Assembly: GCA_020072965.1 (NCBI GenBank)
Contig: JAIQFY010000017.1
Location: 17,604-81,603, forward strand
From: Terriglobia bacterium
GTDB lineage: Bacteria > Acidobacteriota > Terriglobia > JAIQFV01
Reading direction: 5' to 3'
Length of the DNA stretch: 64,000 nt
This document shows, piece after piece, positions 34,842 to 61,070 of the stretch; the first letter of the stretch is position 1; every line of letters begins with the position of its first letter. The position numbers were made by a program, and so were the translations under genes. The notes under the pieces were generated by a model that saw only the letters and a program-made list of their open reading frames with translations, did not search any database and was not told the origin of the DNA.

Positions 34842-37256
34842 ATGGACACCTTCCTTCAAGACCTTCGACAAGGTTTTCGAGCTCTCTTAAAGAACCCCGG
34901 GCTTACGGCGGTAGGCGTGCTAACGCTGGCGCTCGGCATCGGGGCCAACACGGCGATCTTCACTGTCATCGACGCCACGCTTCTTCGGCCACTTCCATAC
35001 AGAAGCGCCGACCGGGTGGTCATGGTATTCGAGACCGAGCCGGAGTTGACCACAGCTCCGGTAACACCGCCGGATTACTTCGATTGGAAGGAGCAGAACG
35101 ATGTCTTTGAGAGCATGGCTGCCGGAACGGAGGATTCCGCTAATCTCACGGGAGCAGGCGAGCCGGAGCGTCTGGAGCTGGCGTCCGTTTCTGCAAACTT
35201 TTTTGAGATGCTCGGGACCCAGCCGATGTTAGGGAGACCGTTCCGGGTGGAGGAAGATCAGCCCGGTAAGAACCTTGTCGTGATCCTGAGTCATGCCTTG
35301 TGGCGTCGCAAGTTTGGCGCAGATCCTGCCGTCATTGGAAGGAAGGTCACTTTGGACGGGTATCCCTGTGAGGTGGTCGGCGTCTTGCCCGCAGAATTTC
35401 AATTTCCACCCATTTGGGGGAATCGGCCCGCGTTCTTTATGCCCTTGGGACTGGCCCGGGATGAAACGCTACGCGGCTCTCATATCTTGTGGGTGATGGC
35501 GCACTTGAGATCGGGCGTGACGGTTGAAAAGGCCCGCTCTGGAATGGAAGCCATTGCCGCGCGACTGGCCACGCAGTATCCATCCTCGAATGCCCACATC
35601 GGGGTCAACCTAAAGACTCTCCGCGAGCAATTCACAGGTGACGTTAGGCGTCCCCTCCTGATTCTCTTTGGCGTGGTAGGGTTTGTTTTGCTGATTGCGT
35701 GCACAAACATGGCAAACCTGTCTCTGGCTCGGGCCACGGCGCGGGAGAGGGAGATTGCTATCCGGGCCGCACTTGGGGCCAGGCGCGGGCGGGTGATCCG
35801 GCAGTTACTCACGGAGAGCATCATCCTTTCATTGTTCGGCGGCCTGGCCGGCATACTGTTGGCGGTCTGGGCGAAAGATGCTCTGCTGGCCCTGGGCCCC
35901 GCCGATTTCATCACTCGCGCCGGGAGAATGAATCTCAATCCTGGGGTCCTTGCCTTTACGCTGACCCTCTCTTTGCTGACTGGAGTGGCATTCGGTCTGG
36001 TGCCTGCCTTACAGGCCTCGCGCATACGGTTCAACGAGACACTGAAGGAGGGAGGAAGCAGGTTATCGTCGGGCACGCGCGGCCGTCGCTTTCGAAGTGC
36101 ACTGATTGTCGCGGAAGTCTCCCTGACCCTGGTGCTTCTGATTGGCGCCGGCCTGATGGTTCGAAGCCTGCATGCTCTCCTTAAGGTGGACCCGGGATTC
36201 GACCCGAAAAACATCCTCACGATGAAAACAGAACTTCCGGATCTCCGTTACCCCAAGGAAGACCAACAAGTCAATTTCTATCAGAAACTCCTGGAGAAGA
36301 TTCGCCCCTTGCCGGGCGTCCAGTCTGTGGCCGCCACATCGCAACTCCCCCTTGGCGGAGGCCCCAATGGTTGGATCCTGATTGAAGGGCGTCCGCGGGA
36401 CCCCGTGTTCAGTGGTCCGCTGGTCCAGCCGACGTCGGTCACGCTCGATTATCTCAAGGCCATGGGCATCCGCCTGTTGAAGGGCCGTTCCTTCGCCTCT
36501 GCTGACAGCCCCAATGCTCCCCACGTGGCTATTATCAATGAGAAGCTGGCACGCCAGTTCTGGCCGAACGAAAATCCCCTCGGAAAGCGACTGAGCTGGT
36601 CGAGCGATTCTCCGGTATGGTGTGAGGTCGTGGGAATCGTCCAGGATGTCCGGGAATGGGGGCTGGCCAACGAACCCATCGCCGAGGCTTACTTCCCTCA
36701 GTCGCAGAAGCCAAGCAAGGCCATGAATCTGGTGATTCGAAGCGAGGGGGATCCCACCGCGCTCACCCTCGCCGCCCGCGCCAGGATTTCGGAGCTCGAC
36801 AAGGATCTTGCTATCTTCGGTGTTTCAACGATGGATCAGATCATCGCGAGCTCCGTTTCGTTTCCACGATTCCAGTCGGTCCTGATGAGCCTCTTCGGAT
36901 TGCTTGCCCTGCTCCTCTCGGCCGTCGGCGTGTATGGTGTGATTGCCTATTCGGTGAGCCTTCGCACACAGGAGATGGGTATCCGCATGGCCCTGGGCGC
37001 TACGCGGGAGGATCTGCTGAAGCATTTGCTGCGACAAGGACTCGTGCTCACTCTGATCGGAGTCACCGTGGGTCTGGCGGGCGCCTTGGCCTTGACCCGG
37101 TTTATGTCGAGTCTTCTTTACGGAGTCCGCCCCAATGATACACTGACCTTTGTAGTCGGATCGCTTGGGCTCGTATGCGTTATCGCGGCGGCAATTTACA
37201 TTCCCTCACGCCGGGCGACGAAGGTGGATCCGGTCGTGGCACTGAGATATGAATGA
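34842..37256 (+). CDS. ADOP-type ABC permease, array copy 1
   Basis: MDTFLQDLRQG...[42 protein letters not shown]. Confidence 0.92.
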   Translation: MDTFLQDLRQGFRALLKNPGLTAVGVLTLALGIGANTAIFTVIDATLLRPLPYRSADRVVMVFETEPELTTAPVTPPDYFDWKEQNDVFESMAAGTEDSANLTGAGEPERLELASVSANFFEMLGTQPMLGRPFRVEEDQPGKNLVVILSHALWRRKFGADPAVIGRKVTLDGYPCEVVGVLPAEFQFPPIWGNRPAFFMPLGLARDETLRGSHILWVMAHLRSGVTVEKARSGMEAIAARLATQYPSSNAHIGVNLKTLREQFTGDVRRPLLILFGVVGFVLLIACTNMANLSLARATAREREIAIRAALGARRGRVIRQLLTESIILSLFGGLAGILLAVWAKDALLALGPADFITRAGRMNLNPGVLAFTLTLSLLTGVAFGLVPALQASRIRFNETLKEGGSRLSSGTRGRRFRSALIVAEVSLTLVLLIGAGLMVRSLHALLKVDPGFDPKNILTMKTELPDLRYPKEDQQVNFYQKLLEKIRPLPGVQSVAATSQLPLGGGPNGWILIEGRPRDPVFSGPLVQPTSVTLDYLKAMGIRLLKGRSFASADSPNAPHVAIINEKLARQFWPNENPLGKRLSWSSDSPVWCEVVGIVQDVREWGLANEPIAEAYFPQSQKPSKAMNLVIRSEGDPTALTLAARARISELDKDLAIFGVSTMDQIIASSVSFPRFQSVLMSLFGLLALLLSAVGVYGVIAYSVSLRTQEMGIRMALGATREDLLKHLLRQGLVLTLIGVTVGLAGALALTRFMSSLLYGVRPNDTLTFVVGSLGLVCVIAAAIYIPSRRATKVDPVVALRYE

Positions 37257-37375
37257 TTCGATTGCGGATTTCTGATTTCGGAATGCGAAATTCAAATTCA
37301 GGACCTATGATTTCATCTTCTGTCCAATGTTCACGGGCAGTGCTTTTCAATCCGAAATCCACAATCCGCAATCAT
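37255..37375. repeat. GATTGCG-family intergenic hairpin element
   Basis: gattgcggatttctgatttcgga...tccgaaatccacaatccgcaatc. Confidence 0.8.
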
Positions 37376-37389
37376 AGGCGGTTAACGAG

Positions 37390-39768
37390 ATGAGAGCTCT
37401 GCTCCAGGACCTTCGTTACGGCTTGCGGATGCTCTCTAAAAATCGGGGGTTCACTCTTGTGGCGGTCTTTACCCTGGCGCTGGGCATCGGCGCGAATACG
37501 GCTATCTTCAGCGTGGTTAACGCCGTGCTCTTGCGCCCGCTGCCGTACCCGGAGCCTGACAGGATTGTCACCATCAATTGGGACGGCCTGGATTACCTGT
37601 CTCGTCTCTCAGAATCCAGTTCCGATCATTTGAGTTGGAAGGACCACGTTCAGTCGTTTGAAAGTGTGGCATCGTATCAAGTCGGCGAGGTGAACCTGGC
37701 GGGAGGTGACGAGCCGGAACGTGTGCGGACGGCTCAGGTGACGCGGGATTTCTTTCGTGTCCTCGAGGTGAGAGCCTCCCTGGGCCGGGATTTTTCTTCC
37801 GAACAAATCGGCGGCGCGCCGGTCATCGTGATCAGTGATGGATTGTGGCGACGCCAATATGGAGTGGACCCGAATCTCATCGGCAAGTCGGTGATGCTCA
37901 ATGCCAAGGTAGTTACGGTGCTGGGTATTATGCCGCCGCGCTTTGAGTTTCCGGAAGGGGTTGAGGCTTGGGTCCTCCCAGGAACGGGCAGCGACACGAT
38001 CATCCCAAGGGTCATACTCCCTCGCCCGATTGCCCGACTCAAACGAGGGCTGTCTCTGGCCCAGGCCCAAGCACAAATGGACGCGATCACAGCCCGGGGG
38101 CAGGCCGACGATACGCGCCTCAAGACCAAGCCTGGAATCCTGCTCACCCCTTTGCAGGTCAGCCTGGCGAGCGGCAGTCGGACCGCGCTGTTCGTTCTGC
38201 TGGGAGTCGTTGGATTCGTACTATTAATCGCTTGTGCCAACCTGGCCAATTTACTGCTGGCCCGCGGGGCGCAACGAACCCGGGAATATGCAATTCGAAC
38301 TGCCCTTGGGGCGAGCCGCCTTCAGTTGATCATGCAATTGCTCACGGAGAGCGTTTTGCTTTCTCTGGCAGGGGGAACACTGGGGGTTATCATCGCGGAG
38401 TGGGGCGTCGACCTCATGGTTTCGTTCCTTCCAATCGACCTGCCCAAGATAAATCCAATTGAGATCGATCGTTGGGTGCTAGGGGCAACGACACTGCTCG
38501 CTGTGACTGTCGGGTTCTTGTTCGGGCTTGCTCCATCGATCATAGCCTCCAAACCTGACCTCATCCAGTCTTTGAAAGAAGGCTCACAAGCGCCCACAAA
38601 CCGCCCACATCGACGGCTCAGGGGCGCCCTTTTGGTTTCTGAGGTGGGGCTGGCATTCGTTCTGCTGATCGGCGCTGGGCTGATGATCCGGACCTTACGG
38701 CGTCTGCTCAGCGTCGATCCGGGCTTTCAGCCAAAACAAGTTCTGACCATGGACATTTCACTGCCTACTTCGAAATATAGCCACCCTTCTCAGATCAGTT
38801 CTTATTATGAACAAGTGCTCACCCGGATTGAAGCCTTGCCCGCAGTGCTCTCCGTTGGGGCGGTCAGTTATCTACCCCTGGCAGGCCGTGATGATGCTCT
38901 TTTTCCAGTCCGCCCGGAAGGACGTTCCGAACCGGTCGAAACTTATGCCCCCTATCGCACTGTGACCCCGGCTTATTTTTCAACCCTGGGTATTCCACTG
39001 CTGCGAGGACGTTTTTTCGACGCCCAGGATGCTCAAAGCGAAACGAAGCTCGCGATCGTGAACAATGCCCTGGCACGTCGCTTATGGCCGGGTGAAGATC
39101 CGATTGGAACACATATTAAACTCATGGATGAATACGAAGTTATTGGAGAGGTCGGGGGCGTCAGAGATTACGACCTTCAAGATTCTGGGGGGCCCTTGTT
39201 ATACGTCTCGATGCAGCAAAGCCCATCACCTGCGATGAGCCTCGTCATTCAGACTTCGGGTGATCCTACCCCAATGATCTCTGCCATCCGGGGTCAAGTT
39301 TTGGCGGTCGATAAAGATCAACCTGTGTCGAGGATCATGACCATGGATCGGGTCATTCTCAACTCGGTCTCATCGCAGTGGTCACACATGCTTTTGTTGA
39401 CCTTTTTTGCCGGGTTGGCCCTTGTCCTCGCAGACGTCGGGGTCTATGGACTCGTTGGCTACCAGGTGACGCAGCGCACGCATGAACTTGGCGTTCGCCA
39501 GGCACTTGGTGCCCTGCCCGGGGATGTACTTTGGCTCGTGGTCCGCGAAGGGATGATGCTAGCAGCGATAGGACTCCTCTTTGGTCTTACGGTCGCGCTG
39601 GGCCTGAGCCGCGTCATTGCCAGTTTTTTATTTGGCGTCACACCCAGCGATCCGCTGACCTTCATCTTCGTCTCACTTCTCCTGATTGCTGCGGCGCTCG
39701 TTGCCTGTTACATCCCTGCTCGCCGTGCGACGAAGGTGGATCCGGTCGTGGCGCTGAGATATGAATGA
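37390..39768 (+). CDS. ADOP-type ABC permease, array copy 2
   Basis: [45 protein letters not shown]. Confidence 0.92.
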
Positions 39769-39921
39769 TTCGATTGCGGATTTCTGATTTCGGAATGCGG
39801 AAGGTTGCGTTAAAGACGGCAGACGAGGACGTCTGCCCCACGGGAGTCGTTCTCGTGGTAACATTGAGGTCCAGTCAAGCGACAGGAAACTGCAAAAACG
39901 ACCTCCTGAGGTGAAGGGAAT

Positions 39922-39984
39922 ATGGTCAAAGCAATTGTTCTGCTGATCGTTGTCCTCATCCTTCTGCAATTTGTATCGGCATAA
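39922..39984 (+). CDS. Candidate 20-aa hydrophobic peptide MVKAIVLLIVVLILLQFVSA
   Basis: Read from the sequence and below the ORF-track threshold. Preceded by gaggtgaaggga. Confidence 0.3.
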   Translation: MVKAIVLLIVVLILLQFVSA

Positions 39985-40034
39985 CTCATCCACAATCTCG
40001 ACCATTTTGGATCGATCAAGGGACTTACCCTGTC

Positions 40035-40715
40035 ATGAATTGTCACGGCAAGAACGCCTGGAGATACCGCTACCATCTACTTCTGCTGATCGTCGCGTTC
40101 TCCGTCTCTTGCGGCCTCTTTTCGCAGGATAGCGGGCCGAGGAGGGATCAGTGGCAGCACCCGCAAGTGGTGATGGATGCGTTGCACATCCATCCCGGCA
40201 GCATGGTCGCCGATGTGGGGGCCGGAGACGGTTATTTCACTTTTCACCTGGCCGAGCGCGTAGGACCCCAGGGCAAGGTCTATGCGGAGGATATTAAGAA
40301 CGACGACGTGGAGGAGATCCGTCGGCTGGCTAAGGAGAAGCATCTTTCGCAGATTGAGGCCTTGCACGGCGAACCGGGTGACCCCAAGCTGCCCGAAAGC
40401 TCCCTGGATGTCGTCCTCGTTATGAATGCATACCACGAATTTCAATCCTACGAAGCCATGCTTCAAGCCATTTTCAATGCGCTGAAGCCCGAAGGAATAC
40501 TCGCCATCATCGACTCTCCTACACCTCCGGGTAATTCCCGCTCCGATTATTACCCTCGCCACAGAATTCCGGAGGAATTGGTTCGAGAGGACGTTGCCCA
40601 TGCCGGGTTTCAATTTCTCCGCAAGGAGCCGGGCTTCACAAATCCGGCGAACAAGAAGGATTTTTACTTCTTGATTTTCGAGAAGCCCAGGGAACGGGCG
40701 GAAATTTCGGATTGA
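40035..40715 (+). CDS. Class I SAM-dependent methyltransferase with signal-peptide-like N-terminus
   Basis: LLLLIVAFSVSCGLFSQ, then RDQWQHP and VADVGAGDGYF. Confidence 0.82.
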   Translation: MNCHGKNAWRYRYHLLLLIVAFSVSCGLFSQDSGPRRDQWQHPQVVMDALHIHPGSMVADVGAGDGYFTFHLAERVGPQGKVYAEDIKNDDVEEIRRLAKEKHLSQIEALHGEPGDPKLPESSLDVVLVMNAYHEFQSYEAMLQAIFNALKPEGILAIIDSPTPPGNSRSDYYPRHRIPEELVREDVAHAGFQFLRKEPGFTNPANKKDFYFLIFEKPRERAEISD

Positions 40716-40881
40716 ACGTAGTAACGACTTAAGTCGTTACTATTCTTTGAATCTTGAGAAGCAGAAGGTACCCGCAGGAATTGCGGATTGCGGATTAAGA
40801 GCAGGTCAAATCGATCTATCCGCAATCCGGAATCTGAAATCAGCACTGTTGAACGTAGTAACGACTTAAGTCGTTACTACG
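40712..40881. repeat. Two 31-nt direct repeats carrying a perfect palindrome, flanking a GATTGCG hairpin
   Basis: ttgaacgtagtaacgacttaagtcgttacta at 40712-40742 and 40849-40879. A perfect 28-bp palindrome lies at 40854-40881. Confidence 0.9.
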
Positions 40882-41031
40882 AAGACGTAACACCTTCCCC
40901 GTTCTCTTTCTCCCTTCGAGTTGTCGGTGCGCTTCTGCCGCACCTAAGCATCAGTTCGATTCTCTGATTTGAGTTCGAGTTTCCAGAGATGTAGTCTCAA
41001 CTCGCGTGCTTTGGAGAAAGGGCGCGATGGG

Positions 41032-41160
41032 TGTCCGGTTTTGCGACAAAACAATCCCAATAACGGGCAAGTGGAGAGGATTTGTGGATTATCCAAGTAC
41101 ATGTTAAAACCATCCGTTTCATAGTGATAGAAAGAAAGCCCCACTCGGCAACAAAGTTGC
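41032..41160 (+). promoter_or_regulatory. Candidate sigma54 promoter with upstream enhancer-like palindrome
   Basis: CGGCAACAAAGTTGC (GG-N10-GC) at 41146-41160, and TGTC-N9-GACA at 41032-41048. Confidence 0.5.
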
Positions 41161-41183
41161 CCATATAGTGGTGGAGGAGACCC

Positions 41184-42437
41184 ATGGACATACCAAGGAA
41201 GTCGGCAGCACGGCAGCGTCTGATCAAGCGGATCATCTACATTACTATCGCCATTATTCTGATTTCCGCTACGACTGTGGTTTTGTCGCGTTTGAAGCCA
41301 GCTGCACCAACTGTTGAACGCGCCACTGTCTGGATCGATACCGTGAAGCGGGGACCCATGTTACGCCAGGTTCGAGGTCTGGGGACGCTTGTACCCGAGG
41401 AAATCCGCTGGATCCCAGCAACCACCGAAGGGAGAGTGGAGCGGCGGCTGATCGACCCGGGCACTCAAGTCAGACCCAACTCGGTTCTGTTGGAGCTCAG
41501 CAATCCCACCCTCGTCCAAGTAGCACTCGATGCCGAAATGCAGGTGAAGGGTGCAGAGGCACGATTGGCCGATTTGCGAGTAACGCTGCAGAGCCAGCAG
41601 TTGACTCAGAAGGCGGGGGCTGCTCAAGTGGAGGCCGAATACAAGCAGGCGCAGTTGAGGGCTGACACAGACGCCGAGTTGGCACGACAAGGACTGACCG
41701 CCGATTTGAACCGTCAGTTGTCGGCGCTGGCCGCGGAACAACTCGGGAACCGCAATCGTATTGAGAAGGAGCGATTGGCCATCAGCGGTGATTCGATCAA
41801 GGCTCAGCTCGCCGTCCAGCAAGCGGAGGTGGAGCGGCTCCGGGCGTTGGCCGACTTGAAGCGACAACAAGTCGATCAGTTGCACGTGCGAGCCGGCCTG
41901 GAGGGTGTGTTGCAGCAGGTTCCCGTGGAAATCGGACAACAAGTCACCGCGGGGACAAACCTCGCCCGAGTGGCGGAGCCCCGGAAGTTGAAGGCGGAAC
42001 TGAAGATTGCGGAGACTCAGGCCAAGGATGTGCAGATCGGGCAGGTCGCTTCGATCGATACGCGCAACGGGATTATTTCCGGTCACGTTGTGAGAATCGA
42101 TCCGGCCGTTGTGGCGGGAACGGTCACGGTGGATGTAAAACTGGAAGGAGCTCTGCCTGACGGAGCGCGGCCGGACTTGAGCGTGGAAGGAACGATTGAG
42201 CTCGAACGACTCACTGATGTCGTTTATGTCGGCCGGCCAGTACAGGGGCAAGCCTTCAGCACCGTCGGACTCTTCAAACTGGTTGAAGATGGCAAAGACG
42301 CTATTCGCGTCCCGGTCAAACTGGGCCGCAGTTCGGTCAACACGATCGAGATCGTTGAGGGATTGCAGGTGGGTGACCAGGTAATCCTCTCCGACATGTC
42401 AGCGCAGGACCGGTCGGACCGGATCCGATTGAATTGA
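41184..42437 (+). CDS. HlyD/MacA-family periplasmic adaptor (membrane fusion protein)
   Basis: One N-terminal TM, VRGLGTLVPEE, coiled-coil hairpin, VRAGLEGVLQ, GLQVGDQVILS. RBS ggaggag. Confidence 0.92.
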   Translation: MDIPRKSAARQRLIKRIIYITIAIILISATTVVLSRLKPAAPTVERATVWIDTVKRGPMLRQVRGLGTLVPEEIRWIPATTEGRVERRLIDPGTQVRPNSVLLELSNPTLVQVALDAEMQVKGAEARLADLRVTLQSQQLTQKAGAAQVEAEYKQAQLRADTDAELARQGLTADLNRQLSALAAEQLGNRNRIEKERLAISGDSIKAQLAVQQAEVERLRALADLKRQQVDQLHVRAGLEGVLQQVPVEIGQQVTAGTNLARVAEPRKLKAELKIAETQAKDVQIGQVASIDTRNGIISGHVVRIDPAVVAGTVTVDVKLEGALPDGARPDLSVEGTIELERLTDVVYVGRPVQGQAFSTVGLFKLVEDGKDAIRVPVKLGRSSVNTIEIVEGLQVGDQVILSDMSAQDRSDRIRLN

Positions 42438-42565: not shown

Positions 42566-42583
42566 TTTTCCCGAGGAGAATAC

Positions 42584-43554: not shown

Positions 43555-43570
43555 TCTCGAGGTAAGACTG

Positions 43571-49686: not shown

Positions 49687-49687
49687 A

Positions 49688-52485: not shown

Positions 52486-52501
52486 TTTGAAAAAAGGAAA
52501 A

Positions 52502-54121
52502 ATGAACATCTCGACGACAATGATTCCCAACCTCACCAAACCTAAAGCCTTGATTGCCGATGACCAGACCGATGTTCTGGAAGCGTTGCGGCTGTTATTA
52601 AAGGGAGAAGGGTTTCACACTGAAACTGTCACCTCTCCCGCGGCGGTCATGACGGCTCTTAGAGACCAGAATTTTGACATCCTTCTGATGGACCTCAATT
52701 ATGCCCGGGACACGACCTCCGGACAGGAGGGATTGAACCTCCTCTCTCAAATCCGCGAACTGGATGCCACCCTTCCGGTCGTGGTAATGACCGCCTGGGG
52801 AACCATCGAGTTGGCGGTTGAAGCCATGCATCAGGGGGTTCAGGATTTTGTCCAGAAGCCCTGGGAAAACGAGCGCTTGATGAGCATCCTCCGCACCCAG
52901 GTTGATCTCGGACGGTCACGGCGCAAGTTAGTTCACCTGAAGACTGCAACCAAGAGCCTAAGCGAAAAAATCCGGGAAGTGTCCGAGCTCAAACCGTTAA
53001 TGGAGATTGTCTCGGCCCACTTGCAAAGTGCTTTGGAGTGCGAATCCGTGGTGGTGTTCACACGGGCACCCCATGAACCCGCCTTCACAGTGGCCTCCTC
53101 GGTCGGCTTTCCCGAGGACGATGTCGGCCGCTTGAAATTTGAACTCAGTAGCCCCATCTTTGAACTCCTGGAAAATCTGGTCCATGTTGAAGGACGGGAC
53201 TTCCCTTCCCACGAGAAATCCAAGTTGGAAGAGATCAAGGCTGCCCTGCTTGTCCCGGTCCTCATGGAAGGGGCCCTGGTGGGTTTCCTTGCCGTGGGGT
53301 GTAAGAGAACGGGCCAGAAATATGATGAGCAGGACAGTAAATTTTTATCCACCATCGCAGGGCAGATCGCCGCCGCCGTCAATCATTTGCGCTGGCAGGA
53401 GCAGGAGAGGGAGTTCAAGGAAGCCCGGGAGATCCAGCAAGGTTTGTTGCCCAAGGAGATTCCACAGATCGCCGGATTTGAAATATCCGGGGCGTGGCAA
53501 CCCGCGCGCGCTGTGGGTGGGGATTATTTTGATGTTCTCAAACTTAGCGAGACGCAAATCGCGCTGTGCATCGCGGACGTGGTGGGCAAGGGCATGCCTG
53601 CGGCCCTACTGATGTCTAATGTCCAGGCCGCAGTCAAAGCCTTCGCGTCAGATTTGGTTTCACCCAAGGAATTGTGCGCCAAGGTGAATCGCGTGATCAG
53701 CGGCAACATTGCCCCCGAGAGGTTTATCACCTCCTTTTACTGCGTCCTTTATGCCCGCTCAAAGAAACTTGTTTATACCAACGCCGGACACAACGCCCCG
53801 ATACTGCTGCACCGGGACGGGACTCTTCTTCGCCTGACAAAAGGAGGCGCGGTGCTGGGCGTGTTTCGCGACGGCCACTACCAGGAGGGCGAGGTCGAGT
53901 TGACCCCCGGCGATCGCCTCCTGCTCTTCACGGATGGGGTGACCGAATTGACCAACCCGGACGGTGACGAATTCGGGGAGAACCGCCTCATTGAACTGTT
54001 GCGTGGAAACCATCATCTGGGTGCAAGTGAACTGCAGCAGAAGGTGATGAATGCCATCGTGGAATTCAGCGGGGGAGAATTTCAGGACGATGCCACCATG
54101 CTCGTGCTGGCGGTAGGATGA
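52502..54121 (+). CDS. Response regulator REC-GAF-PP2C (SpoIIE/RsbU-like) phosphatase
   Basis: REC: IADDQ, LMDLNYARDTTSGQEG, MTAW, QKP. Central GAF-like segment. PP2C: VGGDYFD, IADVVGKG, TDGVTE, QDDAT. Start 52502 after aaggaa. Confidence 0.88.
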   Translation: MNISTTMIPNLTKPKALIADDQTDVLEALRLLLKGEGFHTETVTSPAAVMTALRDQNFDILLMDLNYARDTTSGQEGLNLLSQIRELDATLPVVVMTAWGTIELAVEAMHQGVQDFVQKPWENERLMSILRTQVDLGRSRRKLVHLKTATKSLSEKIREVSELKPLMEIVSAHLQSALECESVVVFTRAPHEPAFTVASSVGFPEDDVGRLKFELSSPIFELLENLVHVEGRDFPSHEKSKLEEIKAALLVPVLMEGALVGFLAVGCKRTGQKYDEQDSKFLSTIAGQIAAAVNHLRWQEQEREFKEAREIQQGLLPKEIPQIAGFEISGAWQPARAVGGDYFDVLKLSETQIALCIADVVGKGMPAALLMSNVQAAVKAFASDLVSPKELCAKVNRVISGNIAPERFITSFYCVLYARSKKLVYTNAGHNAPILLHRDGTLLRLTKGGAVLGVFRDGHYQEGEVELTPGDRLLLFTDGVTELTNPDGDEFGENRLIELLRGNHHLGASELQQKVMNAIVEFSGGEFQDDATMLVLAVG

Positions 54122-54126
54122 AAAGA

Positions 54127-54316
54127 AGTTATCAGTGGTCAGTGGTCAGTGGTCAGCAACTGGCAGTAACCGATCAGCTATCGGCTGTTAGGCATGAATA
54201 GAACATATCAAAAGACTTAAGCACTTCGTTGATTCTGATCATCTCAATCCGATTCCATCTGATAGTCGAATGCTGACAGCTGCTTACTCGCAACCGACCA
54301 CTGGCCACTGACAACT
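54127..54316. repeat. CAGTGGT/CAGTTST element with the conserved core in reverse orientation
   Basis: The reverse complement of about 54195-54256 is ggaatcggattgagatgatcagaatcaacgaagtgcttaagtcttttgatatgttctattc, which aligns with the 60180 core. Confidence 0.8.
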
Positions 54317-54330
54317 TTTTGGAGACAATG

Positions 54331-56835
54331 ATGGAATCGTTATTCCAGGATCTTCGCTACGCCCTCCGGATGCTGTTCAAGAACCCCGGCTTCACTGCGG
54401 TGGCCGTATTGACCCTGTCGCTCGGGATCGGCGCCAATACGGCGATCTTTTCTCTCACCGATCAGGTTCTTTTCCGGCTTCTCCCGGTCGTGCGTCCGGG
54501 GGAACTCGTGATCCTGCGCTCGCCCGGGCCGAATCCGGGGCACACCTGGAGCGATAGCGATGATACGGCCTCCTTCTCTTACCCGTTATACAAGGACCTG
54601 CGAGAACGCAATACGGTGCTTGCCGGTGTTCTGGCCCGCTTCCCGACTTCGTTGAACGTGGCGGGAGATGGACAAACGGAACGTGCAAGCGGCGAGCTGG
54701 TGTCCGGAAATTACTTCGAATTGCTAGGAGTGCGCCCGGCTCTGGGCCGCGTCCTGACTCCGGCGGACGAGAGCGCGCCCGGGGCAAATCCGGTGGCAGT
54801 GTTGAGTTATGGTTACTGGACACGCCGGTTTGGCGGGGATCCCGGCATTCTGAACAAAGTCCTGAATGTCAATGGAACGCCGCTCACCGTGGTCGGTGTG
54901 TCTCGCCCCGGTTTTGCTGGAATTCAGATCGGTCAGTTGCCGGATATCTTTGTTCCCATCACGATGAAACCGATGATGACGCCCAATTGGGACGGGCTGA
55001 ATGATCTCAAGGATCATTGGGTCGCGATCCTCGGTCGACTGAGGCCGGGTATGACGCGACCTCAAGCGGAAGCGGGTTTGTTGCCGGTTTATCGATCCAT
55101 TCTTGAATCCGAGTTGCCCCTGATGGGCCTGTCTGCGACAACGAAAAGTCGGTTTCTCCAAAAGCAAATCCTACTGGGCGAGGGATCCCACGGCAGACCC
55201 GTTCTACAGAATGACGCTCAGCGGCCCTTGCTGGTCCTGATGGCGATGGTGGGACTGGTGCTGCTGATCGCTTGCGCCAACCTCGCAAACCTCCAGTTGG
55301 CGCACGGGCTGGCGAGGCAGCGCGAGGTCGCCGTGCGGGCCGCACTGGGCGCTGGACGCCTCCGCATGGTCCGTCAGCTGTTGACAGAGAGTGTGCTGCT
55401 GGCGCTTGCCGGAGGCGCCACCGGTCTGCTGGTTGCTTCGTGGATGCTCGAAACCTTCATTGGAGCGATTCCCCAGGGACTGGGAGCGGTGGGGCTTGAG
55501 GCCCGACTGGATCCTCGGGTAATAGGATTCACCCTGGGCCTTTCGGTTGGGACAGCTATCCTGTTCGGTTTAATCCCCGCCCTGCGGGCGACACGAATCG
55601 ATTTGCAAAGCACGCTCCAGGGACAAGGGGCCGCTGTCTCGAACAGCTTGTCCCACGTGCGCTTGCGGAAAGGATTGATCGTTTCACAGGTGGCGCTCAC
55701 GGCGGTGCTGCTCATCGTGGCCGGATTATTTGCCCGGAGTCTTGACAACTTGAAACGATTATCCCTGGGTGTGCGCATCGATCACGTGATCCAGTTTTCC
55801 ATCGCGCCCGAATTGAATCGCTATACCCCACCGCAGACCCTGTCTCTGTTTGACCGCATGAGAGCAGGCATCGGCGCTTTGCCCGGCGTGCGTTCGGTCA
55901 GCACTGCGGAGGTTCCCGTGTTCGATAACAGCGATATGGGGTCCAATATCACGGTGCAAGGATATGCGCCCCATGAAGAGGAAGACATGCATGTGTTCAA
56001 GAACTGGGTGGGACCCGATTATTTCTCGACCATGGGCACCCCCTTGATTGCGGGCCGTGAGTTCAATGAAGGCGACAGGGCGGAAGCCCCGAAGGTTGCT
56101 ATCATAAATGAGACGATGGCTCGTCGTTTTTTTGCGGGCCGCAACCCCATCGGCGGCCGATTCGCTTTCGGGGCCGGCCACAACACACTTCCGGACATCG
56201 AAATTGTCGGTCTGGTGAAAGACAGCAAACACACCAGCCTGCGGAGCGAAATCCATCCGTTCGTGTGCCTTCCTTATGAGCAGGACACAAAGCTGGGAGG
56301 GATCACGTTTTATGTGCGGACGGCGATGGAGCCGGCTGCAATGCTCGAAACACTGCGCCACACCGTCGAACGCTTCGACCCGAATCTGCCGCTGTATGAT
56401 CTCAAGACCCTTCAAAATAAGGTGGACGAGTCGCTCTTCAGCGACCGGCTGTTGACGTTTCTTTCTTTGTGCTTTGGGGTACTGGCTGCTCTACTGGCGG
56501 CCGTGGGGCTGTACGGGGTGATGACCTACACGGTAACACGCCGTACGCGCGAGATCGGCATGCGCGTCGCACTCGGCGCCACCCGCGAAAATGTGGCCTG
56601 GTTGATTTTGCGGGAAGTCGCACGCATGACGGGCGTGGGACTCACGATCGGCCTGGCAGCAGCGTTCGCCCTCGGCCGGTTGATTGAGTCGCAGTTGTTT
56701 GGCATCCGGGCCAGCGACCCTTTGGTCTTCGTCCTGGCGGCAGTGCTGCTTGCGGCGGTGGCTCTTTTGGCCGGCTATCTGCCGGCACATCGGGCAACGC
56801 GGGTGGATCCCATGGTGGCATTGAGATGCGAGTAA
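54331..56835 (+). CDS. ADOP-type ABC permease, array copy 6
   Basis: MESLFQDLRYALRML.KNPGF, PAHRATRVDPMVALRCE. Confidence 0.92.
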   Translation: MESLFQDLRYALRMLFKNPGFTAVAVLTLSLGIGANTAIFSLTDQVLFRLLPVVRPGELVILRSPGPNPGHTWSDSDDTASFSYPLYKDLRERNTVLAGVLARFPTSLNVAGDGQTERASGELVSGNYFELLGVRPALGRVLTPADESAPGANPVAVLSYGYWTRRFGGDPGILNKVLNVNGTPLTVVGVSRPGFAGIQIGQLPDIFVPITMKPMMTPNWDGLNDLKDHWVAILGRLRPGMTRPQAEAGLLPVYRSILESELPLMGLSATTKSRFLQKQILLGEGSHGRPVLQNDAQRPLLVLMAMVGLVLLIACANLANLQLAHGLARQREVAVRAALGAGRLRMVRQLLTESVLLALAGGATGLLVASWMLETFIGAIPQGLGAVGLEARLDPRVIGFTLGLSVGTAILFGLIPALRATRIDLQSTLQGQGAAVSNSLSHVRLRKGLIVSQVALTAVLLIVAGLFARSLDNLKRLSLGVRIDHVIQFSIAPELNRYTPPQTLSLFDRMRAGIGALPGVRSVSTAEVPVFDNSDMGSNITVQGYAPHEEEDMHVFKNWVGPDYFSTMGTPLIAGREFNEGDRAEAPKVAIINETMARRFFAGRNPIGGRFAFGAGHNTLPDIEIVGLVKDSKHTSLRSEIHPFVCLPYEQDTKLGGITFYVRTAMEPAAMLETLRHTVERFDPNLPLYDLKTLQNKVDESLFSDRLLTFLSLCFGVLAALLAAVGLYGVMTYTVTRRTREIGMRVALGATRENVAWLILREVARMTGVGLTIGLAAAFALGRLIESQLFGIRASDPLVFVLAAVLLAAVALLAGYLPAHRATRVDPMVALRCE

Positions 56836-56837
56836 AC

Positions 56838-57049
56838 CAGTTGTCAGTTGCCAGTTCTCAGTTCTCAGTTGAAAGTCGCAAAATGCTAGTGTTCAGCTAT
56901 CAGCGATCAGCCTTCAGCTTTGGAAAGGGCGCATGATGAGTCATGACTACGCTCTGACTCTTGTTTGATTACGGAGACGGCCAAGAGAATCTGACTGTGT
57001 GTCGGTACTTCACTGAGAACTGGCAACTGACAACTGCTTCTGACAACTC
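56838..57049. repeat. CAGTTST element, second core subfamily
   Basis: tagtgttcagctatcagcg...ctgactctt...gattac...caagagaatc is shared with 59560-59750. Confidence 0.8.
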
Positions 57050-57062
57050 TTCGGAGGTTACG

Positions 57063-59498
57063 ATGGAAACCTTGTTCCAGGATCTTCGCTACGGCTTCCG
57101 GATGCTGCTGAAGAATCCCGGGTTCACCGCTGTGGGCATTTTGACCCTGGCGCTCGGAATTGGCGCCAACACGGCAATCTTCAGTGTCGCGGATGCATTC
57201 CTGCTGAAGCCGCTTTCGATCCCCAACGAGAATCGCATGGTGGTCGCCCTCGAAGTGGGGCCCAATCAGAGGGGCGATGACACCTCAAGTGTCTCTCCTG
57301 CCAACTTTGAAGACTGGAAGAGTCAAGCCAAGACCTACGACGCCATGGCTGCTTATGCTTGGGCGAATGTCAATCTGACGGGTCAGGGAGAGCCCGAGAA
57401 GGTCCAAGGATTCGAGGTCTCCCCTAATTTCTTCGGGGTCGTGGGAATGCAGCCAGCCCTGGGTCGAGTTTTCTTACCCGAGGAGGAAAATCCCGGGCAT
57501 GAACAGGTGGCGATTCTCAGTCATGGGCTCTGGCAGCGCCGGTACGCTTCTGACCCCAGCATCGTTGGAAAGAACGTGACGATTGACGGAAGGACTTACG
57601 CGGTCATCGGAGTCATGCCTGCAGGGTTCAACTTCCCCACCACCGTGGAGTTGTGGATGCCGCTCGCACTCGACTCGAAGGCCCGGAGCGTTCGAAATGC
57701 ACACTACCTGTTTGCGCTGGGCCTGCTCAAACCCGGAATGTCTACCTCCTCCGCACGAGCCGAGTTGAAGACGATTGCGGCGCAGTTGGCACAGGCTTAC
57801 CCGACCACAAACAAGGGTTGGTCAGTCCGTGTCATGTCCATGCGGGATTTTGTGACCGAGGACTTAACGCGGCAGTATACCCTGATGTCAGTCGTCGCCG
57901 TCGCCTTTGTGCTCCTGATCGCTTGCGCCAACGTCGCCAATCTTCAGTTCGCCCGGGCCACAAGCCGCCAGAGAGAGATGGCCGTGCGGGTGTCCCTCGG
58001 CGCAGGTCGATGGCGGATCATGCGGCAACTTTTGACAGAAAGCGTCGCGGTGTCTCTGCTGGGTGCGGCACTCAGCTTGCTCCTGGCCCAGTGGGGCATC
58101 GAACTTATCCTGGCACACATGCCTCCCGAGACCGCCAAGTTTATCGCCGCGTGGAATCACATCAGCCTTGATTACCGGGCCTTTTTGTACACTTTGACCG
58201 TGGCCCTGCTTACCGGCATCCTGTCCGGCCTTCTCCCAGCTTTTCAGAGCTCAAAGCCGGATCTCAACGAAGCCTTGAAGGAAGGCGGACGCAGTGCAAC
58301 AGCAGGCCAATCGAAACATCGTCTGCGAAGTTTCCTGGTCATGGCCGAAGTGGCGTTGGCCCTGATTCTCCTGGTGGGATCGGGGTTGATGGTGAAGAGC
58401 TTTAAAGCCCTGCTGAACATGAATCAGGGACTCGATCCGAATGGTGCCCTCACCCTGCGCATCGATCTTCCTCCGGCCAAATACAAGACCCCGCCGCAAA
58501 GGGCGGCCTTCTATGAACAGGTGCTGCAAAATCTGAAGATGATCCCCGGAGTCGAGGCTGCCGCCACCGCCACCAATATTCCCTATGGGAATTACGGGAG
58601 CAACGCGCTTATCAGCGTGGAAGGGAGGGTGTCAGTTAATGCCTCAGACCTTCAGTTGGCCACGAACCAGGTCATTGGTGCAGACTATTTTCGATTGATG
58701 CACATCCCGCTTCAAGCAGGCCGTGAGTTCACCGGCCAGGATGGGACAGATTCTCCTCCCGTCGCGCTCGTGAGCGAGTTGCTGGCACGCAGGTACTGGC
58801 CCAATCAAAACCCGATCGGGAAACGAGTGAAGTTGGGGCTCGAGAACAGCATTCACCCCTGGATGACCGTGGTGGGTGTGGTCGGCGACGTCAAGTATGA
58901 GTGGAGTGAGCGGGATCCGAGACCCACGCTCTATTATCCTTTTCAACAAGCTCCTGTACTGAACTCGTACGTGGCGATCCGCTCCCAGGGGGATCCCAGG
59001 CAATTCATTTCGGCGGTGCGGGCTGCGATTGCGCGGGTCGATTCCCAACAACCCCTCTCCGACATTAAACCGTTGGACAAGGTGATTTCAGATTCCACGG
59101 TCGGCATTGCCTATGTCGCCGTCATCATGAGCGTCCTTGCAGTCATCGCGTTAATTCTTTCAACCGTGGGGGTCTTTGGGGTGGTGTCTTATCAGGTGAC
59201 GGAGCGAATCCATGAAATTGGAATCCGCATGGCCCTCGGCGCCAACCCGCGCGATGTATTGGGGATGGTTGTTGCCCGGGGGGCCTGGTTGACATTCACG
59301 GGTTTGGGAATTGGTCTCATTTTCTCGATCGGACTCGCACGGCTGCTCGCCAGCCTGATTTTTGGAATCGAGGCGATGGATTGGCTCACTTTCGGAAGTC
59401 TTTCTTTGACGCTCGCGCTGGTGGCCATGCTGGCCAGCTATCTGCCTGCACGACGCGCCACCCGGGTGGACCCGGTGGTCGCGCTGCGACATGAGTGA
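57063..59498 (+). CDS. ADOP-type ABC permease, array copy 7
   Basis: RBS ggagg, [36 protein letters not shown]. Confidence 0.92.
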   Translation: METLFQDLRYGFRMLLKNPGFTAVGILTLALGIGANTAIFSVADAFLLKPLSIPNENRMVVALEVGPNQRGDDTSSVSPANFEDWKSQAKTYDAMAAYAWANVNLTGQGEPEKVQGFEVSPNFFGVVGMQPALGRVFLPEEENPGHEQVAILSHGLWQRRYASDPSIVGKNVTIDGRTYAVIGVMPAGFNFPTTVELWMPLALDSKARSVRNAHYLFALGLLKPGMSTSSARAELKTIAAQLAQAYPTTNKGWSVRVMSMRDFVTEDLTRQYTLMSVVAVAFVLLIACANVANLQFARATSRQREMAVRVSLGAGRWRIMRQLLTESVAVSLLGAALSLLLAQWGIELILAHMPPETAKFIAAWNHISLDYRAFLYTLTVALLTGILSGLLPAFQSSKPDLNEALKEGGRSATAGQSKHRLRSFLVMAEVALALILLVGSGLMVKSFKALLNMNQGLDPNGALTLRIDLPPAKYKTPPQRAAFYEQVLQNLKMIPGVEAAATATNIPYGNYGSNALISVEGRVSVNASDLQLATNQVIGADYFRLMHIPLQAGREFTGQDGTDSPPVALVSELLARRYWPNQNPIGKRVKLGLENSIHPWMTVVGVVGDVKYEWSERDPRPTLYYPFQQAPVLNSYVAIRSQGDPRQFISAVRAAIARVDSQQPLSDIKPLDKVISDSTVGIAYVAVIMSVLAVIALILSTVGVFGVVSYQVTERIHEIGIRMALGANPRDVLGMVVARGAWLTFTGLGIGLIFSIGLARLLASLIFGIEAMDWLTFGSLSLTLALVAMLASYLPARRATRVDPVVALRHE

Positions 59499-59500
59499 AG

Positions 59501-59750
59501 AGTTCTCAGTTGTCAGTTCTCAGTTGTCAGTTGACTGAAAGCAGTTTCCAGTTGCCATTTCTCAGTTGACAGCCGGGAGGTGTTAGTGTTGAGCTATCAG
59601 CGTTCAGCGATGAGAACCACGCAAGGTGAGTTAGAGCTTGCTTCTGACTCTTCCGAATCGATTACCACCGTCGTCAAGGGAATCAGCCAGGAGTGGGGGC
59701 TCTTCACTGGCAACTGAGAACTGACAACTGAGAACTGATTTCCGGCAACT
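59501..59750. repeat. CAGTTST element, second core subfamily
   Basis: Left arm gttctcagttgtcagttctcagttgtcagttg, right arm actggcaactgagaactgacaactgagaactg. Confidence 0.85.
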
Positions 59751-59774
59751 GTCTTTCAGATCGGAGATTCCTCC

Positions 59775-60179
59775 ATGCGAACCTCTCGCGAGATCGGATA
59801 TGCATTGCTGCGGGTGACCCTGGGTGTCTTGTTTGCGACTTATGGAATCGGAAAATTCCGGATGGGGATCGGCAACTTCGCCGGCGTGATAGAAAAAGAG
59901 TTCACCGGCAAACTCCCGATGGTCCTGGTCTCCCCGTTTGGTTACATTCTCCCTTTCGCTGAACTGCTGGTCGGTGTCCTGCTGACCCTCGGGCTCTTCA
60001 CTTCCCTCGCACTCATCCTGGCCGGGCTGCTGATGATTGCGCTAACGTTTGGGATGGCGCTCACGGGGCAGGCTCCCGTTGTCGCGCAAAACCTCACCTA
60101 CGTCCTCGTCATTTTTATTCTTTTCTGGGCCTTGGAAAGTAATGGATATTCCCTGGATCGACTGCGGCAGGGTAGGTAA
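59775..60179 (+). CDS. DoxX family membrane protein
   Basis: LLRVTLGVLF..YG.GKF, LPFAELLVG.LL.LGLFT. Four TM segments. Confidence 0.8.
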   Translation: MRTSREIGYALLRVTLGVLFATYGIGKFRMGIGNFAGVIEKEFTGKLPMVLVSPFGYILPFAELLVGVLLTLGLFTSLALILAGLLMIALTFGMALTGQAPVVAQNLTYVLVIFILFWALESNGYSLDRLRQGR

Positions 60180-60377
60180 CAGTTGTCAGTTGTCAGTTCT
60201 CAGTTGTCAGTGAGGAGCTGTCAGCATTCAGCTATTAGCCATCAGCTGGAATCGGATTCAAATGACTGGAAACAACGAAGTGCTCGAGTCTCTTGATATG
60301 TCTCACTCTAATCATAGCTGACTGCTGATAGCAGATAGCTGACGGCTAGTTGCTGACAACTGAGAACTGACAACTGT
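60180..60377. repeat. CAGTTST element with conserved core, forward orientation
   Basis: cagttgtcagttgtcagttctcagttgtcagt...ctcgagtctcttgatatgtctcactctaatcatagctga...ctgacaactgagaactgacaactg. Confidence 0.85.
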
Positions 60378-60401
60378 ATTTCCAACTTCACCCCCGGGGG
60401 A

Positions 60402-61070
60402 ATGATGATCAAACTCGTTGATTTAGAGAAGTTCTATGCTCATGGCGTATCAAAGACGTTCGTGCTGCGGCGCGTGAGTTTTGAAGTTCAGGAGGGAGAG
60501 TTCGTCTCGATCATGGGCCCGTCGGGCGCGGGCAAATCCACGGTGCTCCATATCCTGGGGATGTACGACAGCGACTGGAGCGGCGAATTCTATTTTCTGG
60601 ATCAGCCGATTCACAAGCTCGACAAGAAGAAGCGGGCGGAATTCAACAAGAAGTATGTCGGCTTCGTTTTTCAAAGCTATCACCTGCTCGATAACCTGAC
60701 GGTCTATGAAAATCTCGAAATTCCCCTGTCTTACCGGGACGTCAAGAAGAGTCAACGAGAGAGCATCGTCTGCGATGTTCTGGACCGGTTTCAAATTGTC
60801 GGAAAGAAGGATCTGTTCCCCAATCAACTTTCCGGCGGACAGCAGCAACTGGTTGCCGTCGCCCGGGCGGTGATTGCCAATCCCAAAGTCATTCTCGCCG
60901 ACGAGCCCACGGGAAACCTTCACTCCAGCCAGGGCGAGGAGATCATGGAACTTTTCAAGAAGCTGAATTCCGAGGGAACCACTATCATCCAAGTCACTCA
61001 CTCCGAAAGGAACGCCTCTTACGGCAGCCGCATCATCAATCTCCGCGACGGATGGGTCGTGAATGATTAG
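60402..61070 (+). CDS. ABC ATP-binding protein (MacB/LolD-type), second copy
   Basis: [30 protein letters not shown]. Confidence 0.95.

Follow-up and report, generated by a model that had tools for sequence, protein, structure and literature searches.

Gene content of the locus

The window analysed here is a 64,000-nucleotide stretch of a metagenome contig (ENA ERZ27248001, k141_1232600) from a Terriglobia bacterium, and the nearest genomes to it are metagenome-assembled genomes (MAGs) labelled Acidobacteriia/Terriglobia. Between positions 34842 and 61070 it carries seven intact and co-oriented genes for permeases of the ADOP family (A1 to A7), which are 792-850 aa long and match TIGR03434 with 915-1000 bits each. 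The same region encodes a single membrane-anchored adaptor of the HlyD/MacA type (M), identified by matches to HlyD_3 and HlyD_D23, and two ABC ATPases (N1 and N2), identified by matches to ABC_tran; this gene set agrees with the first-pass annotation of the window. Genes for a methyltransferase, a DUF2911 protein, a REC-GAF-PP2C response regulator and a DoxX/MauE-family protein are interleaved with them (Table 1).

The seven permeases share pairwise identities of 35-43%, no two neighbours being especially close, and fall into two subgroups, a (A1, A2, A5 and A7) and b (A3, A4 and A6). The true starts of A6 and A7, as judged from gene calls in relatives, are the ATG codons at 54331 and 57063, their open reading frames (ORFs) opening at 54319 and 56961. 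An eighth, isolated ADOP gene (A0) was found on the opposite strand, 27 kb upstream from the array; its product deviates from the QDLR motif at the N-terminus, and its neighbours encode an HD-domain protein and an MBL-rhodanese protein, with neither an ATPase nor an adaptor gene beside it. All eight ADOPs of the window scored 908-1000 bits over the full TIGR03434 model, above the curated cutoff of 622.3 bits.

TIGR03434 is described as a family of "orphan" permeases, which lack an adjacent ABC ATPase gene. A0 fits this description and the array does not: A3 starts 282 bp downstream from N1, and a single gene, that of the DoxX protein, separates A7 from N2. One or two ATPase genes are likewise part of most adaptor-headed arrays in other genomes. 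No TolC/OEP domain was found in the scanned ORFs of the window, nor among the genes called and Pfam-annotated in the source contig and in the related loci. No PadR domain was found in the scanned small ORFs flanking the array or A0, nor among the genes called in the contig and in its close relatives; both absences had already been pointed out for the window. A PadR-family regulator gene beside the ADOP gene marks the PadR-linked loci of the TIGR03433 neighbourhood.

Table 1. Genes and repeat elements of the window
Feature	Position	Strand	Description
ADOP permease A1, subgroup a	34842-37256	+	804 aa; TIGR03434 1000 bits; AlphaFold2 model with 8 transmembrane helices and two periplasmic domains
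ADOP permease A2, subgroup a	37390-39768	+	792 aa; TIGR03434 915 bits
Class I S-adenosylmethionine (SAM) methyltransferase	40035-40715	+	Pfam Methyltransf_31/25/11
Adaptor M, membrane-anchored, HlyD/MacA type	41184-42437	+	417 aa; Pfam HlyD_3, HlyD_D23
ABC ATPase N1, MacB/LolD/DarD type	42584-43288	+	234 aa; ABC_tran
ADOP permease A3, subgroup b	43571-46018	+	815 aa; TIGR03434 948 bits
DUF2911 protein	46215-46856	+	213 aa as called; Pfam DUF2911
ADOP permease A4, subgroup b	47134-49686	+	850 aa; TIGR03434 924 bits
ADOP permease A5, subgroup a	49884-52313	+	809 aa; TIGR03434 986 bits
REC-GAF-PP2C (SpoIIE-type phosphatase) response regulator	52502-54121	+	Pfam Response_reg, GAF, SpoIIE; 539 aa as called in relatives
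ADOP permease A6, subgroup b, cluster P1	54331-56835	+	834 aa; TIGR03434 953 bits
ADOP permease A7, subgroup a, cluster P3	57063-59498	+	811 aa; TIGR03434 981 bits
DoxX/MauE-family small membrane protein	59775-60179	+	Pfam MauE, DoxX
ABC ATPase N2, MacB/LolD/DarD type	60402-61070	+	221-222 aa; ABC_tran
ADOP permease A0, isolated	5532-8006	-	824 aa; TIGR03434 908 bits; 27 kb upstream of the array
Heptamer-repeat hairpins (CAGTTGT/CAGTTCT)n ... (ACAACTG/AGAACTG)n	42441-61513		Nearly every spacer from M to just past N2
Other heptamer tandem repeats	2273-2321, 10198-10267, 12047-12126, 14742-14827, 37348-37373, 40780-40796, 43289-43320, 46076-46104, 52309-52364, 63843-63900		
Sugar-type ABC importer (binding protein, 508-aa duplicated ATPase, permease); GH38 alpha-mannosidase	14959-18759 and 18795-22187		Upstream of the array
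GC-rich palindromic repeat pair	61082-61123 and 61175-61216		86% identical; within 61071-62425, downstream of N2
Small ORF with CopG/BrnA antitoxin domain	61544-61756		Downstream of N2
Extracytoplasmic function (ECF) sigma factor	62426-63028		Stop codon overlapped by a 251-aa ORF of no known family

Conservation of the adaptor and ATPases in related genomes

Relatives of the adaptor were collected by a pattern scan of one genome per GTDB species. At least 585 were found, and the best 80 loci, from 80 different assemblies, were kept and each viewed over 10 kb on either side; they belong to Terriglobia, Acidoferrales, Bryobacteraceae/Solibacteraceae, Vicinamibacteria, Blastocatellia/Pyrinomonadaceae and Verrucomicrobiota (Chthoniobacterales). 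With five loci from exact-protein look-ups these made up a set of 85, annotated with hidden Markov models built from the window proteins. Counts per locus were restricted to the 58 loci with at least 8 kb of sequence downstream from the adaptor.

The adaptor has thousands of homologues at 65-70% identity. It gave a full-length but weak match to DarC and distant PDB matches to MexJ and MacA, and among the 80 loci its identity was 59-67%, except for one close relative at 94%. In all 85 loci the adaptor gene heads a co-oriented cluster, so that, as in tripartite pumps, an HlyD/MFP adaptor is encoded together with the transporter. The gene orders that recurred, with P standing for an ADOP gene, were M N1; M N1 N2; M N1 P; M P N1 P N2; M P P P (P) (N1); M N1 P P N2; and M N1 P N2 P P.

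N1 was present in 51 of the 58 loci, N2 in 35 and both in 34, and no locus had two ATPases of one type. The number of ADOPs per locus was far less regular: none in nine loci, one in nine, two in 16, three in 19, four in four and five in one, exceeding the number of ATPases in 27 of 58. The 136 full-length ADOPs of the 85 loci fell into 52 clusters at a threshold of about 45% identity. Permease content is therefore very heterogeneous, M, N1 and N2 each forming a single orthogroup, and the comparison of copy number and order called for by the first-pass annotation revealed no conserved one-to-one arrangement.

Seven species loci contained M and N1, some with N2, and no ADOP or ADOP fragment within 10 kb on either side; the downstream genes, sampled in five of them, were unrelated (peptidases, hydrolases, DUF1501/1553 and others). 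The putative energising module is thus encoded apart from the ADOPs in these loci and is outnumbered by them in others. In several tight operons one ADOP gene is flanked by both ATPase types (L080, L082-L084, L011 and L097).

Only A6 and A7 have clear distant counterparts (49-59% identity), and these occupy both permease slots of an Acidoferrum-type operon of the order M P1 N1 P3 N2. Relatives of A6 (51-59%) fill the first slot, P1 being the most widespread ADOP cluster, and relatives of A7 (49-53%) are located just upstream from N2. The best distant match of A3 was 53% identical. The array of the window can be read as this five-gene core to which A1-A5 and passenger genes have been added.

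Of about 30 ADOPs located just upstream from N2, 22 belonged to subgroup a; of 14 located just upstream from N1, 11-12 belonged to subgroup b. A rule assigning subgroup a to N2 and subgroup b to N1 by adjacency was considered and not retained, since these are tendencies only.

Verrucomicrobiota of the Chthoniobacterales also carry this adaptor, at 59-64% identity, together with both types of ATPase and with arrays of ADOPs (L029, L035, L040-L042, L048-L050, L060, L062, L064, L066, L069, L070, L072, L074-L076, L081, L087 and L092). The module has either moved between phyla or is ancient.

The two ATPase types

N1 and N2 are 42% identical to each other. Orthologues of the first type in the related loci were 73-83% identical to N1, and those of the second type 62-76% identical to N2 (about 80% in the database), with a cross-identity between the two types of 40-48%. 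Every locus with two ATPases had exactly one of each, and no third type occurred in any of the 85 loci. Both types have canonical Walker A, Q-loop, LSGGQ, Walker B-Glu and H-loop motifs; the D-loop reads GNLH in N2 and GNLD in N1, and 22 further positions are at least 90% conserved within each group with a residue that differs between the groups. By these comparisons N1 and N2 represent two distinct conserved orthogroups and not duplicates of one another. In L045 their genes overlap by 4 nt.

Neither ATPase reached the curated NCBIfam cutoffs for LolD, FtsE, YbbA, MacB or DarD. The best matches of N1 were DarD, the MacB nucleotide-binding domain (NBD) and LolD. The scores against the DarBCD equivalogs were all below cutoff: 254 and 253 bits for DarD (cutoff 375), 55 for DarC (cutoff 450) and 19-30 for DarB (cutoff 700).

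Tandem-NBD proteins, which appeared among the top N1 matches, were considered as a possible Rosetta stone for an N1/N2 heterodimer and set aside as uninformative: they are generic fusions from other lineages, and both halves are only about 40-45% identical to N1.

Fold and conservation of the permeases

The Pfam architecture of the called ADOPs is MacB_PCD-FtsX-MacB_PCD-FtsX, that is, an internal duplication. An AlphaFold2 model of A1 (pLDDT 77, pTM 0.66) begins with an amphipathic N-terminal helix (residues 2-17), followed in the first half by transmembrane helix (TM) 1 (19-48), periplasmic domain 1 (PCD, 59-259), TM2 (260-300), coupling helix 1 (302-310), TM3 (315-351) and TM4 (367-393). A short, low-confidence cytoplasmic linker (400-411) leads to the second half, composed of TM5 (410-447), periplasmic domain 2 (458-663), TM6 (664-707), coupling helix 2 (709-717), TM7 (722-759), TM8 (767-792) and a C-terminal helix (797-802). 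According to this model each ADOP is a single-chain pseudo-dimer, in which two MacB units are fused directly (4+4 TM). This is the topology of the Type VII ABC (MacB) group, a four-TM unit in which a large extracytoplasmic domain is inserted after TM1 and a coupling helix joins TM2 to TM3.

A Foldseek search with the A1 model returned E. coli YbbP (9ge6_A) as the best full-length match, followed by MacB, Spr0695, LolC/E, BceB and HrtB; by sequence, the nearest solved protein is MacB. Against the family of MacB proper (NF007826, cutoff 966) the ADOPs scored 102-138 bits, and their chain contains no NBD, the ATPases being encoded by separate genes. The score against YbbP (NF041854, cutoff 999) was 23 bits. 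YbbP and BceB have ten helices including a linking pair (PMC12646458, PMC5985334), so that the direct fusion with 8 TM in the A1 model represents a different arrangement of the same fold. The system is thus placed in TIGR03434 and in the Type VII ABC superfamily. Since it lacks their defining features or falls short of their curated scores, it cannot be assigned to MacB proper, YbbAP or DarBCD.

Alignment of the seven array permeases by domain, as had been suggested for the locus, showed that divergence along the genes is not uniform. Identity was 55-77% in the N-terminal helix/TM1, TM2-coupling helix-TM3, coupling helix 2 and C-terminal blocks, and 17-45% in the two periplasmic domains. Among the 136 ADOPs, the most conserved segments were the C-terminal helix, TM1 and coupling helix 2, with a top-residue frequency of 0.74-0.80, the N-terminal helix following at 0.62; the periplasmic domains were the least conserved (0.43-0.45). 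The strong divergence of the periplasmic domains noticed at first reading is thus borne out. The near-invariant ends noted there correspond to the N-terminal amphipathic helix and the C-terminal minor coupling helix and, being conserved in ADOPs from all over the 85 loci, are no peculiarity of the array but a family-wide signature of the side that faces the cytoplasm. MacB uses its C-terminal helix and its major coupling helix to contact the NBD, which an N-terminal amphipathic helix joins to TM1 (PMC5985334).

Two local similarities were observed between array genes at the DNA level. At the 3' ends of A1 and A2 (37196-37290 and 39708-39802) the last ~60 nt and at least 31 nt past the stop codon are 93% identical, despite a protein identity of about 43% elsewhere, which could be due to gene conversion or to a shared repeat element. 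A6 and A7 share 80% identity over 155 nt at their 5' ends.

Permease turnover and selection in close relatives

Two MAGs, GCA_020073085.1 and GCA_041490505.1, were close enough for gene-by-gene comparison, their core proteins being 93-98% identical to those of the window (adaptor 93-94%). Both retain the backbone M-N1-A3-DUF2911-A4-A5-PP2C-A6-A7-DoxX-N2-ECF sigma, and the second half of the array is conserved in both. The remaining permeases differ. GCA_020073085.1 lacks A1 and has an extra alcohol-dehydrogenase gene. In GCA_041490505.1, A1 is reduced to an internally deleted fragment joining residues about 1-186 to about 695-730, and the A2 slot (L007) is occupied by a different ADOP, 35-38% identical to every copy of the window (the A2 orthologue in L004 is 85-86% identical). 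The same MAG has an additional ADOP of 824 aa between the DUF2911 gene and A4, and a further one of 797 aa located 5 kb downstream from N2.

Orthologous ADOPs of these close relatives were 82-92% identical (86-91% for A3, 88-92% for A4 and 83-84% for A5), compared with 93-98% for M, N1 and N2. The ratio of nonsynonymous to synonymous substitution rates (dN/dS, Nei-Gojobori method) was 0.04-0.06 for M, 0.01-0.03 for N1 and 0.02-0.03 for N2. For the ADOPs it was 0.10-0.18 over the whole gene, 0.11-0.22 in the periplasmic parts and 0.08-0.15 in the membrane and cytoplasmic parts. Since the values are well below 1 in all seven copies, these are functional genes on which purifying selection acts, although the constraint is three- to ten-fold weaker than on the core.

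No signal of gene-wide positive selection was detected in the ADOPs among these close orthologues. Diversifying selection on the periplasmic domains was also considered and was not supported, their dN/dS being only slightly above that of the membrane parts and well below 1.

A contig from another sample (L002; ENA ERZ27248265 k141_3418393) is 100% identical to the window over positions 31184-45795 and diverges inside A3, continuing with non-ADOP sequence and then with unrelated genes, including a GTPase-like gene. Because of this tail its interpretation as a recombinant was not adopted. It is probably an assembly chimera formed at a conserved ADOP segment, a real rearrangement being the alternative.

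Interleaved genes and regulators

The interleaved genes had been put forward as possible accessory parts of the transporter. Across the 85 loci, homologues of the methyltransferase were found only in the three closest relatives, those of the DUF2911 protein only in the closest relatives and those of the DoxX protein only in two close relatives (L094 and L095). The three genes were rejected as parts of the system because they are confined to three or four closest relatives, and are regarded as lineage-specific passengers. The suggestion holds better for the REC-GAF-PP2C protein, which may be a genuine regulator of the system: an orthologue (REC-PP2C) directly follows the adaptor gene in L039, and a partial one was found in L052.

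A well-conserved, co-oriented gene for a sigma54-type (NtrC-family) response regulator occurred within 10 kb in 33-35 of the 85 loci, either upstream from M or after N2 (among others in L011, L012, L016, L018, L033, L051, L059, L072, L080, L084 and L097), with a histidine kinase gene called beside it in the three loci that had Pfam-annotated gene calls. Most of the distant lineages carry this type of regulator, whereas the lineage of the window has none and has the REC-GAF-PP2C protein instead; the sigma54 -24/-12 promoter pattern occurs in the window at chance level.

Possible sharing of the core by the permeases

These results incline us slightly towards the interpretation that the adaptor, N1 and N2 form a fixed core used by alternative, fast-evolving ADOPs in a Type VII (MacB-type) envelope efflux system. 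A working complex would consist of one ADOP, two ATPase subunits, an adaptor ring and an outer-membrane channel encoded elsewhere. Binding of ATP would move the two coupling helices and squeeze the periplasmic domains by mechanotransmission, expelling a substrate taken from the periplasm or the outer leaflet; the divergent periplasmic domains would determine what is handled. The same core would be used in trans by alternative ADOPs, including "orphans" encoded elsewhere. Such use is suggested because the core is single-copy and conserved, and the ADOPs are many, divergent and quickly gained, lost or replaced.

The ATPase pair would most simply be an N1/N2 heterodimer on the pseudo-heterodimeric permease. 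This is the simplest model because the single permease of several operons is flanked by both ATPases and because two-ATPase loci have one of each type. Alternatively, homodimers of N1 and homodimers of N2 might serve different ADOP subgroups. Under the heterodimer and under a two-pump arrangement alike, permeases that outnumber the core and cores that lack a local permease would require use in trans.

The first-pass annotation had proposed interchangeable permeases docking on a shared adaptor and shared ATPases, in the manner of cassettes. The proposal fits the conserved core, the varying number, order and identity of the ADOPs and the cores without a permease; the two ATPases, however, are distinct conserved types and no interchangeable copies, and no recombinase or integron-like machinery supports cassettes in the mechanistic sense.

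Several points weigh against a shared core. Any binding of an ADOP to N1, N2 or M is deduced from sequences, and our view is that of the best 80 of at least 585 adaptor loci, 10 kb on each side; other MacB-type ATPases or adaptors, dedicated to particular ADOPs, may be encoded elsewhere in these genomes. One Bryobacteraceae contig (L096) carries N2 with one ADOP and neither adaptor nor N1 within 10 kb, and, like the adjacency tendencies, fits an assignment of N1 to subgroup-b and N2 to subgroup-a ADOPs. No N1-N2 fusion protein was found, and neither here nor in the relatives with Pfam annotation is an outer-membrane factor linked to the system. High conservation of the adaptor contrasts with the divergence of the periplasmic domains on which it would have to rest, a pattern that docking on every one of them would not obviously produce. 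Finally, high conservation of the ATPases is normal for ABC NBDs and is no sign of a hub by itself.

Some of these observations would be explained by two ordinary pumps with bystanders, A3 working with N1 and A7 (or A6/A7) with N2, the adaptor being common to both and the other ADOPs being independent, using other ATPases or none, and clustered by descent or co-regulation. M Pb N1 Pa N2, with the subscripts denoting the subgroup, is the commonest multi-gene pattern and agrees with the adjacency tendencies; the only permeases with clear distant orthologues, A6 and A7, lie in the P1 and P3 slots, and a stand-alone locus of N2 with an ADOP exists. Two such pumps nevertheless appear unlikely, given that it is common for a locus to combine three to five ADOPs with a single ATPase or with none (for example M P P P P or M P P P N1), that core-only loci occur, that the permease of single-permease operons is flanked by both ATPase types, that all seven copies are under purifying selection and that a third ATPase type is missing from the 85 loci.

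Less likely still is that the ADOPs are mechanotransducers or sensors comparable to FtsEX or BceAB and not transporters. Each periplasmic domain would then bind a different periplasmic partner or ligand, and ATP-driven motion would activate an enzyme or report to the REC-GAF-PP2C protein or to the sigma54 two-component regulators. The response regulator embedded in the array, the frequent sigma54-type regulators nearby, with the histidine kinases called beside three of them, and the retrieval of BceB by the fold search are in line with such a role, and the Type VII ABC superfamily includes the non-transporting FtsEX-EnvC and YbbAP-TesA (PMC12646458). The MacA/HlyD-type adaptor that heads every cluster is, however, typical of tripartite efflux, which sets it apart from FtsEX and Bce systems. 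The clusters have no linked periplasmic enzyme that is conserved and could act as a partner, the DUF2911 protein being lineage-specific, and efflux operons are just as commonly induced by a two-component system encoded next to them.

A mere cluster of paralogues from tandem duplication, varying by neutral gene birth and death with no functional modularity, is improbable: ADOPs do form large paralogous families, with about ten in a 42-kb cluster of Psychroflexus torquis (PMC3914696), and A1 is a pseudogene fragment in one relative, but the copies of the window are only 35-43% identical and fall into two deep subgroups, neighbours are not closest relatives, arrays elsewhere draw their ADOPs from many clusters but invariably follow the same adaptor in the same orientation, and all seven copies are under purifying selection.

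A bolder version of the shared core is that a single adaptor with an N1/N2 heterodimer energises the whole ADOP family of a genome, including dozens of scattered "orphans"; we regard this as a serious possibility that falls somewhat short of being probable. It would give an envelope exporter of Type VII a modularity like that of energy-coupling factor (ECF) transporters, would account for the naming of ADOPs as orphan permeases and would allow the function of the family to be tested through three genes. Acidobacteriota are dominant bacteria of soils, and the ADOPs rank with their largest paralogous families of membrane proteins; the family name records the puzzle that ADOPs seem to have no ATPases, to which the adaptor, N1 and N2 offer a concrete and testable answer. 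If it is correct, the principle of a shared energising module would extend from importers to MacB-type envelope machines. A fixed engine with periplasmic "heads" of fast turnover would be a plausible means for soil bacteria to track a changing chemistry of antimicrobials, lipids or secreted products.

Comparison with characterized systems

The array resembles MacAB-TolC in the four-TM unit with its large periplasmic domain between TM1 and TM2, the coupling helix between TM2 and TM3 and the C-terminal minor helix (PMC5985334), as well as in the MacA/HlyD-type adaptor and the MacB-type NBD sequences. It differs in that MacB is a homodimer with a fused NBD, whereas the ADOP is a predicted fused pseudo-dimer with separate NBDs of two types, and in having many alternative permeases per adaptor and no linked TolC-like gene.

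E. coli YbbAP(-TesA) provides the best full-length structural match. YbbP is a fused pseudo-symmetric permease with two separate NBD subunits, in a 2:1 stoichiometry (PMC12646458). Unlike the ADOP model, in which the halves with their 8 TM are fused directly, YbbP has 10 TM and a linking helix pair; YbbA is one ATPase type forming a homodimer, and the system has no adaptor and a single permease.

The darobactin exporter DarBCD (NF038008/NF038010/NF038007) likewise combines a large FtsX-type permease, an adaptor and a MacB-type ATPase, and gave the best NCBIfam match for both ATPases and the full-length weak match for the adaptor. It has one permease and one ATPase type, in contrast to the present system, where scores are below cutoff and no biosynthetic cluster is present.

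In group II ECF transporters and in systems served by MsiK/MalK, one energising module, which in ECF comprises two ATPases (A and A'), serves many separately encoded membrane components. The logic is alike, but the folds are unrelated and these systems are importers; sharing is established there, and here it is proposed from gene content.

Genomic island 43 of P. torquis contains about ten ADOP paralogues in a 42-kb cluster (PMC3914696). As here, many ADOPs occur with other transporter genes, including ATP-binding ones; by its description, however, that cluster is set apart as a genomic island of a Bacteroidota genome for which no conserved core of adaptor, N1 and N2 is described. We found no functional or structural study of ADOPs in the searchable literature, and no publication describing the conserved core of adaptor, N1 and N2 or its serving the ADOP family.

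Heptamer repeats in the spacers

Hairpins built from heptamer repeats were found in the spacers M-N1, N1-A3, DUF2911-A4, A4-A5, PP2C-A6, A6-A7, A7-DoxX and DoxX-N2, and after N2. Tandem heptamers (CAGTTGT/CAGTTCT/CAGTTGC) begin right after a stop codon, and the reverse-complementary copies run up to a point 15-35 nt short of the following start codon; many spacers contain nested inner heptamer inverted repeats, and several hairpins are followed by a short T-run. The motif had 42 matches, against 0.01 expected, all within 42443-61513, and whole-spacer folds gave -68 to -110 kcal/mol (z -6.5 to -9.5). The long intergenic gaps of this array (125-280 bp) are due to the hairpins that fill them. Over 159 nt the A4-A5 spacer is 79% identical to that between DoxX and N2.

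The spacers around A1, A2 and the methyltransferase gene have a different heptamer, GCGGATT, and other families (TGCGGAT/GCGGATT, ATAGGTG/AATAGGT, GGTGTCG and GAAGTCG) occupy intergenic positions throughout the window; heptamer repeats are therefore taken to be a genome-wide habit of this lineage. Of the 85 related loci only about a dozen had them, all in some Terriglobia lineages; in most other lineages the operons are tight, their genes separated by -4 to about 100 bp. For this reason the hairpins were rejected as an intrinsic component of the transport system. They may modulate termination, mRNA stability or recombination, and they resemble REP/ERIC-like or cyanobacterial STRR-like repeats. 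The spacer between the methyltransferase and adaptor genes (40716-40880) contains, in addition, two copies of a perfect-palindrome element, ACGTAGTAACGACTTAAGTCGTTACTA, about 140 bp apart, which flank a GCGGATT/AATCCGC heptamer hairpin.

Flanking regions

Upstream from the array the window encodes a sugar-type ABC importer and a GH38 alpha-mannosidase (Table 1). The importer ATPase was rejected as a partner of the ADOPs because its score is far below that of the MacB-type group. A tRNA-like T-arm string near 34590 proved not to be a tRNA, Rfam gave no matches in the window, and scans of the window for promoter and terminator consensus sequences were at or below chance.

In GCA_041490505.1 the further ADOP of 797 aa adjoins a gene of the 23S_rRNA_IVP/bAvd fold (L095, 15452-18598), and the same bAvd-like gene is present with no ADOP in GCA_020073085.1 (L094, 20442-20666). 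The bAvd-fold family includes accessory proteins of diversity-generating retroelements. Downstream from N2, the palindromic repeat pair and the small antitoxin-like ORF precede the gene of the ECF sigma factor, which is kept together with the overlapping 251-aa ORF in the close relatives.

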